This document shows, piece after piece, positions 13,863 through 56,690 of a stretch of 64,000 bases of DNA. The position numbers were made by a program, and so were the translations under genes. The stretch lies in assembly GCA_964016885.1 (NCBI GenBank), contig OZ024760.1:17484001-17548000 (forward strand). The letters are read 5' to 3'. How positions within the stretch are numbered: the stretch's first letter is position 1; every line of letters starts with the position of its first letter. Below the pieces are notes generated by a model, which worked only from the letters and a program-made list of their open reading frames with translations, was not told the DNA's origin and searched no databases. The DNA is from Eledone cirrhosa. Lineage: Eukaryota.

Positions 13863-16800
13863 TCAGGGTGAGAGAAGAGAGAGAGGGGGAAGTGACAACT
13901 GACAGCCCATCATGAGGTGAGGTGTTTGATTCATAAGAACGCCCCTGCCTTTCAAATTAAAACCAAAACAACAGCAACAACAATACATACCTTCAAAGAA
14001 TCGGGAAAGGAAAATACGACATTCTCATTTTCCTTGACATGAGAAATGGTAGTGACAACAGATTCTCCATCTGCAATGAGAAAATCCACAATAGTAAACA
14101 ACTCTGATATAGCAGAAATACTCTTGGGTTTCAAATAATTGTCCTTCAACCCTGCTTATTAATTTTTCAGATTTTTTCCAACCCACCCGCTCATATTCCA
14201 ACCCCCCACCCTTGCTTATTAAATTTTGCTAATCTCTGGCAAAATTTTATTTTAAGTTGTAGCATTTCTGCAACAATTGATTTTCTTTAGACATTAAAAA
14301 ACATTATACATGATGAAAAACGTACATTACTAGAAATCCCATATGTTATAAAATATATAGGAAGGTTTAGAGTCTCAATATGTAAACTAAATGACTAATT
14401 CTGGTTTAGTGGTTAGAGCATTGGGCTTGCAATCGAAAGGTTGTGAGTTCAATTCTCAGACCGGGTAATGTGTTGTTTCCTTGAGCAAGACACTTTATTT
14501 CACATTGCTCCAGTTTACTCAGCTGTAGAAATGAGATGATAGGGACTATCATTCCACTGCAAAGTGGTCGTGGAGGTGCCACGGCAAAAAAGCACCCAGC
14601 ACTCACTGTAAATGAGGTTGGTGTTAGGAAGGGCATCCAGCTGTAGAAATCAAGCCAGAATCAGTTCCCGTCCCACCCTTGCAAGCAGGGAAAAGCGGAC
14701 GTAAAATGATGATGGTAACAGAGACAAACTAAAAAAATTAGATTTTCCAACCTCCCTTCCCTATCATTTGGAACCGAAATGGGGTTCTTCCGAAGAGTCT
14801 TTGGAGTAACATTACTCGATACAGTGCGTAGCTCGGAGATCAGAGAGTTACTCCAGGTAGAGCCGTTATTTCTCCGATTTGAGAGATCACAGCTCCGATA
14901 TTACGGACATGTGGTTAGAATGTATCAGGAAAGAATCCCTGGACAGATGTTATGGACAAAACCAACACGTAGGAGACCCAGGGGTAGACCTAGAGCGAGA
15001 TAGTTGGATAACATCCATGAGCTTGGCTGGTCTCACTTGGAGATCCAGCTGGATCAGTTGGAGACCGTTGTCTTTCCCTTGGACATCGGTGGTGTAGAGA
15101 GGGGAGCGGGTAATACATGGGCGACTGCTGGTCTTCCACAAACAACCTTGCCCAAGCTTGTGCCTTGGAGGGAAACTTTCTAGATGCAAAAACATGGTCA
15201 TTAATGACCGATGGAGGCTGCTAGGTTTGAATAAAAGAAAGGACGGTGCTGATTGGAACATATTTGATCATAGAACTCCTGGACAAAGGTTGATCTGAGA
15301 CTAAGCCACCATCATCACCACCATTAAAACCACTACTGCCACCAGCACCAAAACCACAACTACTATTGCCACCATCATCACTACCACCACATACAACAAG
15401 AGCTTACCTTTATACTTGAAGGAAGCCTTCGTAACATCAAGTTCAGCAGCATTTAATTTGAAACATTTCACGGACTCTTTAATCTACAATAGAAACAATA
15501 TATATAATATATATATTAACCGTTTAGCATTTACATTACTTTGAATGGAAAGAGGTGAGAGAATTCTGGCCAGATACAGCCGAAAACTTTATCTCATATA
15601 ATATCGAATCTATGAGATTTTCATATTATTTATTTTGAGAACAATACCTTAATGTCAGAATGAGCAACTAGTTTGAACAGAAAGAGGTGAGCGAATTCTG
15701 GCTGGATACATCCGGTTTAAATGCTAAAGGGTTAATAGTCAGAAAAACATCACCTAGAGCCACTACTCCTCCGAATTGAGAGATCACAGCTCTGATATTG
15801 TGGGCATCTGGTTAGAATGTCTAAGGAAAGAATCGCTGGACAGATTTAATGAGCAAAACCAACCGACAGGAGACCCAAGGGTAGATAGACCTCAGGCATG
15901 AGGGTTGGCTAACATCCGTGAGTTCAACTGGTTGCACTTGAGGATCAAGCAGGATCAGTTGGAGGTGGTTGCGAATCACATACCCATAGTATCAGAGCTG
16001 TGATCTGTCAATTCAGAGAAGTAGTGGCTCTACCTAAAGTGACTCTCTGATCTCCAAGCTACAAATATGTCCAGTGATTCTTTCCTTAGACATTCTAATT
16101 ACATGCCCATAGTATTGGAGCTGTGATCTCTCAATTTTGAGAAGTAGTGGCTCTACCTGAAGTGACTTTCTGATCTCTGAGCTACAAATATGTCCAGTGA
16201 TTCTTTCCTTAGACATTCTAATTACATGCCCATAGTATTGGAGCTGATCTCTCAATTTTGAGAAGTAGTGGCTCTACCTGAAGTGACTTTCTGATCTCCA
16301 AGCTACAAATATGTCCAGTGATTCTTTCCTTAGACATTCTAATTACATGCCCATAGTATTGGAGCTGATCTCTCAATTTTGAGAAGTAGTGGCTCTACCT
16401 GAAGTGACTTTCTGATCTCTGAGCTACAAATATGTCCAGTGATTCTTTCCTTAGACATTCTAATTACATGCCCATAGTATTGGAGCTGATCTCTCAATTT
16501 TGAGAAGTAGTGGCTCTACCTGAAGTGACTTTCTGATCTCTGAGCTACAAATATGTCCAGTGATTCTTTCCTTAGACATTCTAATCACATACCCATAGTA
16601 TTGGAGCTGATCTCTCAATTTTGAGAAGTAGTGGCTCTACCTGAAGTGACTTTCTGATCTCTGAGCTACAAATATGTCCAGTGATTCTTTCCTTAGACAT
16701 TCTAATTACATGCCCATAGCATTGGAGCTGATCTCTCAATTTTGAGAAGTAGTGGCTCTACCTGAAGTGACTTTCTGATCTCTGAGCTACAAATATGTCC

Positions 16801-18437
16801 AGTGATTCTTTCCTTAGACATTCTAATTACATGCCCATAGTATTGGAGCTGTGATCTCTCAATTTTGAGAAGTAGTGGCTCTACCTGAAGTGACTTTCTG
16901 ATCTCTGAGCTACAAATATGTCCAGTGATTCTTTCCTTAGACATTCTAATTACATGCCCATAGTATTGGAGCTGTGATCTCTCAATTTTGAGAAGTAGTG
17001 GCTCTACCTGAAGTGACTTTCTGATCTCTGAGCTACAAATATGTCCAGTGATTCTTTCCTTAGACATTCTAATTACATGCCCATAGTATTGGAGCTGTGA
17101 TCTCTCAATTTTGAGAAGTAGTGGCTCTACCTGAAGTGACTTTCTGATCTCTGAGCTACAAATATGTCCAGTGATTCTTTCCTGAAACATTCTAACTACA
17201 TGTCCATAGTATTGGAGCTGATCTCTCAATTTGGAGCTGAAGTGAGCTCTGATTTCCAAGCTATGAATTTTATCGAGTAACCCTCCATTTTGGCTGCTTG
17301 TATTTGCAATCATTTTTTTTATTTTTAGGTCAATAGACAAATTTCTAATTCACAATATCGACAAGAGGTGAAAATTAATACACAATACATTCACAATAAT
17401 TTAATAATTGTTTCTACTTTTGGCACAAGGCCAGCAATTACCCAGTGCATTACTAGTACTTTATTTTAATAATGGTTTCTTTATTAATAATTTAATAATA
17501 GAAACAAAAGAAAAAAAGTCGTATTCATCGAACGCCCAACCTTTTATTTCTAATACACATCCGGCTAAATGTCTTGTTTAACTCTAGGTCAGACCTGATT
17601 AGTGATCAAAAAGCTTTTTTCAGACAGGACCACACACACATTTGTTTTTCAAATATAATACATCTAGAACTATTACATTATTTAACACTCTCCTCTTTAG
17701 AAGGCATGGGTTAATTCAAGTGACATTTAGCTGCTATTTCTAGTCAGTGAAGTGGCCACGTTCTACGTAGGACATGCAGCTCCATATGTCGTCTATAACC
17801 AACCATGCCAGACCTGAACCAGGCAGATGTGTGACCACAAAGCCTAGTCATATCCACCCAGTTTCTGATTCAGACACAATACACCAAGGACCACATTGTC
17901 TAATATTTCTTTCATCCACCCCCACCCCCCTTCTTCTTTAGTAGGCATAGTTTAAGATTAACGAGACATTGGGCTGCTATTTCTAGCCAATCAATCGGCA
18001 ACGTAGAGGATCTTCCGTTGGTTTAACCCAGGGTATAAAATTTATTAAAATCACCACACAATACAGTGTTAATATAAAGTCTACAATTTTAAATATAATT
18101 AAATTCACGACCCCCCCCCCCCCCTAAAATTGGGGGTAAATAAACCGACCGAATTTCAGAATAGGCACCACTGGTTTAATTTTCTTTTACAATTTATTTT
18201 TATAAAATATTTTTTTACTTAAAATGGACAGTGAGTGGACAGAGACATTAAATTGTAACAAATTGAAACACTTTAAAAAATATGCAAAGATTTAGTCGTT
18301 ATCTCTCTATATAATCACAATTGTATGCCGCCGCCTCCGTATATATATATGTGTATATATCACCTATATATTATGAAATACTGTGTGCTTCTTGCTCATA
18401 ATAATTTCTACACTTTTCATTTATATGTGTATATATA

Positions 18438-54925: not shown

Positions 54926-55739
54926 AGAATGGTGGGAAGGAGTGGAACTCCGAGGTGTGAGTGGTGGTGGTGGTGGTGGGGGGGGGGGGGGAGTTGGTGG
55001 AAAAAAAAATTTAAATAAAAGGAAAAAAATTAAAATAACACATGAGTGGGAAAATAAGTTGAAAACAAATGTTGAAAAGGTGTCAGACGTGTAGAGGTGG
55101 TGCGTCCAGAAATAACTGTCGAAACGGCTTCAGCTCTGCCGTCGGGATCCCCTACTCTTTTCCTGTTACCCACTCTACTACCCATAGTATCGAGTACTCT
55201 GGTGCATTATGGTCCACCTGGTTCCTTACCACACTTCCTTCGTTATATATATTAGATATATATATTTAATTAGAAAGTGAACAATACAAAATATAACTAC
55301 TCCATTAACAAAGGTTTCTGATTCCTGGATCGTTCATCTAACAGAGATGTGATATCACATGTGATATAACATGTGATATAACATCTCTGTCAGATGAAAG
55401 ATCCAGACGTATATTAATATTGTCTGGGATACAGAAACCTTTGGTAATGCAGTAGTTATATTTTGTGTTGTTCACTTTCTAATTAAATAGCTCTGTTCAA
55501 TACATAGAGCACTCTTTTTCCTTTGCTTTTTCTTCGGAATTACCTAACATATATACATATATATAAATGAGAAAGTTCATCTCTAAAACAGCCGTTAAAA
55601 AAATCTAAATGCTGCCAATGACAGCGGTGGGCAAACATGCCTCAGGGGACAGAGACCAGAAGCCAACAGAGAGACAATCCACAAGGTGGGTGACAGGCAG
55701 ATAACATATAGAAAATATTGAAAAAGGAGAAGTGTGTTG

Positions 55740-55810
<71 letters not shown>

Positions 55811-55838
55811 TGTATATATAGTGTATTTTGCAATATGA

Positions 55839-55931
55839 TTTTCAGCAAACAGGTGGAGTACTTAGCTTTGATAAGTACCAAAAAGTACGAAACAGAGCTC
55901 TGTCAGCTTTATCTCCCCTGTTTGCTGAAAA
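55839..55931 (+). ncRNA. Type I hammerhead ribozyme with U3-A8 core variant and extended stem I
   Basis: AGCU-UUGAUAA-GUAC-CAAAAA-GUAC-GAAA-CAGAGCUCUG-UC-AGCU, enclosed by UUUUCAGCAAACAGG/CCUGUUUGCUGAAAA. Confidence 0.8.
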
Positions 55932-56168
55932 AGTAAAGTAAGTGAGACTGTCACTACTCTAAAACAATAGCGTAAGGTCTTCTAAATGCTTTTAATTAAG
56001 CATACAGTGTATTGCAAAAGACACTATATATACATTCATATATATATCGCTATTTCAGAGCACCAATTAACTTTGCCTTTCATCCTTACGGGGTCGATAA
56101 AATAAAGTACCAGTAATGTACTGGGTAATTGCTGGCCTTGTGCCAAAAGTAGAAACAATTATTTTAAA

Positions 56169-56209
<41 letters not shown>

Positions 56210-56690
56210 GAGGGAAGTGTGGTTAGGAACCAGGTGTGCCATAACGCACCAGAGTACTTAATACTTAAGGTAGTAGAGTGGGTAATAGGAACATTTTCAA
56301 GACCCCGACAGCAGAGCTCAAGCTGTTTCGACAGCTATTTCTGGACCAGAAATAGGCGTCGAAAACGGCTTGAGCTCTGCTGTCGGGGTCTTGAACATAT
56401 ATATATATATTATATTATATTATGTATTTGACACCAATATACATAACATTTCAATGAAAAGAGACCTCTAAAACGAATCTTGTTCAGAGAAGCAAATAAA
56501 TACAGAACATCTTTTACAAAATCACTGAGGGGTAGATCCTAATAATGTAATCTAAAAAGAACATTCCATAGGCATCTTTCCCCAGGGACATAGTCTTAGT
56601 TAAGTAACCTAAAGTTGGGAGGAATGATGCTTGTGAAGTTTTCTCTTTAGATTACCTTACTGTGATCAACCCTCAGTGATTTTGTATACG

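Follow-up and report, generated by a model that had tools for sequence, protein, structure and literature searches.

The window analysed here is a stretch of 64,000 nucleotides from the 3.0-Gb, AT-rich and repeat-rich genome of Eledone cirrhosa. It holds a hammerhead motif in which the C3-G8 pair of the catalytic core is replaced by U3-A8. An earlier note, made from the letters of the window, took the two changes for a compensatory pair that argues for selection on catalysis. The locus thus raises the question of whether the swap belongs to one copy or to a whole lineage, what selection acted on and which type of element carries the motif.

The core swap is a property of a family of repeats and not of the window copy alone. 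The window element is probably a 5'-truncated copy, inverted in part, of a non-coding hammerhead repeat of 320 nt with the U3-A8 core: a non-LTR retrozyme whose tandem transcripts would, by prediction, self-cleave and which would have been inserted into a (TA)n run by the enzyme of a Penelope-type element (PLE).

Organization of the window element

By sequence and predicted fold the window motif is a type I hammerhead, and its self-cleavage is predicted (Table 1). Apart from the U3-A8 pair, its core follows the consensus. The core, the G10.1-C11.1 pair, GAAA, the GUC triplet, the palindromic stem III and the perfect 15-bp extension of stem I all lie where the earlier note had placed them. The hammerhead pattern has one match in the window and none in 100 shuffles, and the fold of the window copy has z=-12.3, a value inflated by the inverted arm. 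The motif shares with Rfam Hammerhead_HH9 (RF02275) the type I topology and an identical loop II hexamer, and differs from it by the U3-A8 core and a longer stem III. The HH9 match (55851-55926, E=8e-4) reaches 24.5 bits, below the gathering score of 52, so that the Rfam scan of the window at the gathering threshold returned no match and misses the window hammerhead. The earlier note expected standard CUGANGA searches to miss this family; a large share of the hammerheads of this genome would escape strict CUGANGA or Rfam-threshold scans. MicroRNA matches in a relaxed Rfam scan were artefacts of the TA repeat.

Table 1. Features of the window element (positions in the window) and PLE families of the same genome.
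Feature	Position	Strand	Description and basis
(TA)n run at left junction, likely target microsatellite	55744..55807	.	Sequence; merges into the inverted arm's short end
Inverted, 5'-truncated second arm (unit 106-143)	55798..55835	-	38/38 positions as in the natural 320-nt unit; stops at the 'short' 3' end
Forward arm, 5'-truncated retrozyme copy (unit 251-320 then 1-164)	55835..56068	+	One hammerhead; 98.6% and 96.3% identical to the unit
Type I hammerhead, extended stem I	55839..55931	+	Folds; 15-bp perfect distal helix (55839-55853 with 55917-55931), internal loop, 4-bp proximal stem
Catalytic core U3 U4 G5 A6 U7 A8 A9 (TTGATAA)	55868..55874	+	Sequence, pattern, Rfam, fold
Stem II, GTAC/GTAC, with G10.1-C11.1	55875..55888	+	6-nt loop as in the Rfam HH9 model; two-sided changes at 4/4 pairs
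G12 A13 A14 A15.1 and palindromic stem III	55889..55904	+	Sequence, fold; GAAA 55889-55892, 12-nt palindrome 55892-55903, GUC 55902-55904; predicted cleavage after C17 (55904)
PLE-type 'tail' past the short end	56045..56068	+	Two fixed 3' ends, unit ~143 and ~169; ~5 nt lost to unrelated repeat
Unrelated high-copy repeat fragment, outside the element	56069..56170	+	Between tail and next (TA)n run; 16-mer 16x in window vs 0.12 expected
Young autonomous-looking PLE family	L218:1882-8815 (G000:C1 ~145.87 Mb); also L219, L223, L226, L227, L229		pLTR hammerheads with U3-A8, A7, GUA site, CCGG stem III
Second PLE family	L083:2200-2250, L085, L093, L102, L104, L106, L109, L236, L237		U3-A8 core, U-U mismatch at stem II base

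The hammerhead had been described as lying within inverted repeats of ~35 bp. The segments 55801-55835 and 56010-56044 are indeed complementary, with 1 mismatch in 35 and with outer 7 bases that are TA repeat, but they do not bound the whole, as the element continues to 56068. The two repeats are not the element's ends: the left one belongs to a second, inverted arm of 38 nt, which the earlier note did not recognise as such, and the retrozyme and PLE context escaped it too. Alignment to the 320-nt repeat identifies the window element as a 5'-truncated, partly inverted copy of it. Since this copy has a single hammerhead, a read-through transcript could be cut, while release of a unit-length RNA would be impossible.

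The protein encoded by the PLE at L218 (P0001; see below) gave no tblastn match in the window, and a Pfam search of 20 window frames yielded nothing but low-complexity matches from tandem repeats. The repeat fragment that follows the tail, together with 15 other sites in the window, may resemble a cephalopod SINE.

A family of 320-nt tandem repeats

A DNA search for the window element returned 2395 candidates, 40 of which were scored, the best copies being 91-98% identical. The natural unit, measured from cut site to cut site at L021 where three hammerheads are spaced 320 nt apart, is 320 nt long with a GC content of 33%. Its longest stop-free stretch is 53 aa, no reading frame for RT and GIY-YIG was found in it, and its circular fold has z=-4.7 relative to 100 shuffles.

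Copies occur as monomers and as tandem arrays, the longest of them head-to-tail with 17 full units (L208:1458-6957) and ~14 units (L209:327-4918). Units of these two arrays are ~87% identical to one another, versus 98% in the short array L021; the two arrays are either old or were copied from a mixture of RNAs. Two or more consecutive units with complete hammerheads are thus present in the family (L021, L208, L209), the window copy having one. By sequence the family falls under the definition of a non-LTR retrozyme given in the available parts of PMC7229834 and of the preprint 10.64898/2026.07.22.740005.

Contigs from runs of the organisms labelled B and D align to the unit at >=80%. One organism D contig spans the hammerhead; it has an alternative stem II, and no change at position 3 or 8 is found among the differences listed. 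Related species probably have the U3-A8 lineage too.

Insertion ends

Copies end at two fixed 3' positions of the unit, the short end at ~143, in an internal AT run, and the tailed end at ~169, which makes the latter ~26 nt longer. In loci L001-L217, a non-random set, 176 insertions were classed, 85 of them as head-to-head inversions and the other 91 as having a single orientation. At least one end was unclassifiable in 26 inversions; 56 of the other 59 combine a short and a tailed end, two have short ends on both sides and one has two tailed ends. In the fetched loci, 87 of 119 short ends and 91 of 103 tailed ends border on a TA run; for the short ends the unit's own AT run may add to the count.

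These figures decide against a hammerhead carried by a MITE-like DNA transposon whose terminal inverted repeats measure 35 bp, a reading which the 35-bp inverted match and the TA flanks of the window copy might suggest. It is ruled out by the variable length of the arms and retains practically no probability: arm length changes from copy to copy, more than half of the classed insertions are devoid of an inverted arm, tandem arrays exist, and in the window the element extends 24 nt beyond the right 'repeat'.

The insertions resemble those of EN+ Neptune-type PLEs (Craig et al. 2021, PMC8557442; Frangieh et al. 2024, PMC11167929). [quoted passage not shown] The 56 short and tailed combinations out of 59 match such a tail and two such starts, and are counted in favour of mobilisation by PLEs. 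By this analogy the insertion ends suggest copying by Penelope-type elements. The retrozyme differs from the EN+ PLEs in that it has no reading frame, its tail measures ~26 nt and it has no pLTR homology to the autonomous families examined. The asymmetry of short and tailed ends on a tandem retrozyme is a mechanistic footprint for the proposed PLE-driven movement of animal retrozymes, and predicts exact start sites.

Penelope-type elements of the same genome

The genome contains 10,595 GIY-YIG candidates, of which 150 were scored and 50 loci examined (30 and 20, two of the stretches overlapping). PLEs with RT, GIY-YIG and long open frames are present, and no PLE pLTR homologous to the 320-nt unit was found among the 50 GIY-YIG loci examined. 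At L218 an open frame of 938 residues has RT and GIY-YIG matches, the RT match being just below the Pfam cut-off, and a cysteine linker of the Neptune/Nematis type by the motif described in the available part of PMC8557442. The frame sits between 1.06-kb repeats, 97.8% identical, which carry a different U3-A8 hammerhead and have the same short and tailed ends. The L218 repeat, the best candidate for a homologous pLTR, shares only the last 7 bases with the tail of the unit, and their alignment is no better than those of shuffles; no partner PLE was identified among the loci examined.

A pattern for PLE-type hammerheads matches 19,617 times in the genome versus 21 in the reversed control, with U3-A8 in 99 of the first 100 matches. 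Two PLE families (Table 1) account for about 19,600 of these motifs. L083 resembles a PLE with a unit-like pLTR, but its sequence reveals a sister retrozyme inserted in the TA run at a PLE end. A further family of C3-G8 type I hammerheads, with a longer stem II and unrelated to the unit, was noticed at L224:~100 (-) and L225:~7985 (+).

The tail and inversion signature is common to autonomous PLEs, and the candidates scored and loci examined are a small part of the total. The unit could accordingly be the pseudo-LTR (3' part) of an autonomous PLE, and its copies truncated insertions of that PLE instead of a separate retrozyme. This is unlikely, since 5' of the hammerhead long copies enter another copy of the unit, up to 17 times, the unit has no long reading frame and the examined PLE loci lack pLTR homology to it.

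A retrozyme mobilised by PLEs thus remains the preferred reading. Its tandem transcripts would self-cleave after GUC into unit-length RNAs, which may then circularise. An RT/GIY-YIG protein acting in trans would reverse-transcribe them from two internal start sites ~26 nt apart, and the PLE enzyme would paste the copies into (TA)n runs. Against this explanation counts the report, in the part available of PMC11167929, that hammerhead cleavage is dispensable for insertion of an anole PLE in vitro.

Selection on the 3-8 pair

One flanking pattern common to all four core types was counted genome-wide, yielding 1134 U3-A8, 1129 C3-G8, 26 U3-G8 and 37 C3-A8 matches, hence 63 mismatched cores in 2326. 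Exact matches to the stem II context of the main family number 1360 for UUGAUAA and 1 for CUGAUGA. In this context the paralogs carry UUGAUAA, the point that the earlier note had proposed to check. Few copies have a single change: position 3 differs in 19, each of which has A8, and position 8 differs in 13. Five of ten fetched position-3 variants begin exactly at this position and are thus truncation junctions. The single C3-G8 match (L031) and L083 exposed sister lineages of the main family.

Only the two Watson-Crick cores, C3-G8 and U3-A8, were amplified across the wider family. An amplified lineage with an intermediate U3-G8 or C3-A8 core was sought and none was found, the mismatched cores being dispersed over the tree. 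Together with the two switches described below, this supports selection to keep the 3-8 pair, as far as sequences can tell. The claim that the compensatory U3-A8 change is a sign of selection is supported in this form, catalysis itself being predicted.

Covariation was assessed in 39 aligned copies chosen for Watson-Crick cores. The 3-8 count is circular in this alignment, whose rows were picked for that pair, and it was excluded as evidence. Two-sided changes occur in 12 of 23 pairs, including all four stem II pairs, where double changes are found both within and between lineages, and 6 of 11 counted pairs of the distal stem I helix. Base-paired cells amount to 95% in these rows, versus 33-49% when the partners are slid. 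Neither the rest of the core nor the base pairs of stem III vary among the 39 copies, although most of these positions were fixed by the selection pattern.

PLE hammerheads have been reported with low or protein-dependent activity (available parts of PMC4209133 and PMC11167929), and the hammerhead might likewise be no longer catalytic, the family being a passenger of PLEs and the 3-8 covariation a matter of founder history. This is improbable: both switches ended on a Watson-Crick partner and the 63 mismatch-core matches include no amplified lineage; the invariance just described, with the restriction set by the selection pattern, points the same way. A hammerhead kept under selection for its 3-8 pair is preferred.

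Two origins of the U3-A8 pair

A tree built without the core, from the 134 nt downstream of the cut site, has two U3-A8 clades (100/99 and 97/94) parted by C3-G8 lineages, and a single origin of U3-A8 is rejected (p-AU 0.0005). Its rows, restricted to Watson-Crick cores with mismatch-core rows excluded, are 16 of 96 main-family copies (15 random ones and the window copy), all 7 of the second lineage and all 29 with C3-G8. The tree is unrooted, its loci are not a random sample and its bootstrap correlation is 0.982, not fully converged. Earlier one-clade tests (p=0.005 and p=0.0004) were set aside because they were confounded by single-mutant rows within the U3-A8 clades. It is likely from these sequences that U3-A8 arose twice in the repeat family. 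The direction from C3-G8 to U3-A8 is taken because C3-G8 is the general consensus. U3-A8 would thus have replaced C3-G8 twice under selection for the 3-8 pair.

The second U3-A8 lineage has at least 29 copies, 27 with A8, and U3 is found in 9 of the 10 copies printed. The remaining 2 of 29 have G8 and are indistinguishable from back-mutations. Template switching between lineages may also have spread U3-A8, but the flanks on both sides of the core differ between the two lineages.

The nearest sisters of the main clade form a series in which a longer stem III palindrome is followed by G10.1-C11.1 (L031) and then by U3-A8. In most other sisters the 10.1-11.1 position is A-U or U-U. Loci L112-L141 hold C3-G8 sister retrozymes in which 10.1-11.1 is A-U or U-U and the stem III palindrome is short; their hammerheads are probably dimer-dependent ribozymes. 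Roughly equal numbers of C3-G8 and U3-A8 sisters in one genome, with two switches, provide a natural series for the context that permits a change of the 3-8 pair.

Folding and mutation pressure

For the window copy, the minimum-energy prediction has the core paired to the 5' strand of stem III. The hammerhead fold lies 2.9 kcal/mol higher, which counts against the preferred explanation. When the core of this copy is changed to C3-G8 in silico, the hammerhead-competent sub-ensemble costs 6.3 instead of 3.3 kcal/mol; the cost likewise increases in 51 of 51 main-family copies, by a median of 3.0 kcal/mol. By the same comparison the difference is 1.5-2.6 kcal/mol in the sister lineages, the majority of which still have C3-G8. 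A folding gain from U3 is therefore present also in sisters that did not switch, and is insufficient alone to explain the switch. A folding benefit of U3-A8, largest where the palindrome is longest, is plausible in these models. In the main lineage U3-A8 likely also eases the inactive fold in which the core is paired to the palindromic stem III.

An equally live explanation of the swap is AT mutation pressure with selection for pairing only. U3-A8 would be the neutral outcome of C-to-T and G-to-A pressure in an AT-rich genome, selection only keeping a Watson-Crick pair and U-A giving no advantage in folding or tuning. The chance of this is put at slightly less than even. Both changes are transitions toward AT, the same core is found in two PLE families with a different stem III, and many C3-G8 sister lineages amplified equally well; yet the predicted folding gain peaks in the lineage with the longest palindrome, whose 10.1-11.1 pair is moreover G-C and not, as in most sisters, A-U or U-U. 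The neutral account concerns the cause of the pair change and is compatible with the identity of the element as a retrozyme.

A fuller scenario is doubtful. The stem III palindrome would have lengthened until it matched the 5' strand of the core, the change from C3-G8 to U3-A8 would have allowed escape from the inactive fold, and a Neptune-like PLE protein would reverse-transcribe the whole family, starting at two fixed sites within the unit. If true, it would offer a repeated natural experiment on the hammerhead core, and a direct footprint of the mobiliser of animal retrozymes with a ready in-vitro system (P0001 and the 320-nt RNA).

Relation to known systems

Retrozymes, U3-A8 cores and PLE tails are each published, and the element is of no new kind. 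The parts available of the following reports set the comparison. Natural U3-A8 cores were reported by Perreault et al. (2011, PMC3088659), where 3-8 covariation is described as active in vitro from earlier work, and ~1,300 minimal U3-A8 hammerheads were tied to Schistosoma PLEs by Cervera and De la Pena (2014, PMC4209133). U3-A8 was already used as a search descriptor (PMC3088659, PMC4209133). The swap is thus less surprising than the earlier note implied. In PMC11167929 the single changes C3G and G8C abolish cleavage and the double change partly rescues it. Relative to Perreault et al., the switch is here placed on a within-genome tree, twice.

The Cercyon PLE hammerheads of Schistosoma mansoni (PMC4209133) are alike in U3-A8 covariation, in abundance within one genome and in PLE context. 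The Cercyon motifs are minimal, have a long helix II and sit in pLTRs, whereas the hammerhead described here combines a full stem III and a long stem I with a 4-bp stem II capped by an HH9-like loop, and its tandem non-coding unit has C3-G8 sisters that can be traced.

Metazoan non-LTR retrozymes (Cervera and de la Pena 2020, PMC7229834; Li et al. 2026, preprint 10.64898/2026.07.22.740005) similarly have one type I hammerhead per low-GC, non-coding unit of ~170-400 nt, and occur as dispersed copies and tandem arrays in genomes with PLEs. The present family differs in that half of it has the U3-A8 core, and it is known here from DNA. It also displays short and tailed ends, head-to-head inversions and (TA)n targets; the word 'tail' is absent from the available text of the 2026 preprint and 'inverted' from the main text of PMC7229834. 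A literature search that covered few subscription papers turned up no publication describing U3-A8 in a tandem retrozyme or retrozymes with PLE tails, although the supplement of PMC7229834 may contain U3-A8 retrozymes. The useful parts are the double origin of U3-A8 and the tail footprint, rather than the core swap.

Other repeats of the window

An apparent inverted-repeat element, with arms of ~45 bp around a duplicated 12-mer, was noticed by eye at 55300-55452, 300 bases upstream of the retrozyme copy. A palindrome with ~35-bp arms lies at 56300-56397 within another repeat, pieces of which recur beside several of the fetched loci. The segment 34800-43300 is a purine-rich region of nested minisatellites with strong GC skew. 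Tandem arrays of 66 bp and 121 bp units are located at 826-2326 and 15974-17236, respectively. The frames created by these regions yield spurious Pfam matches only.
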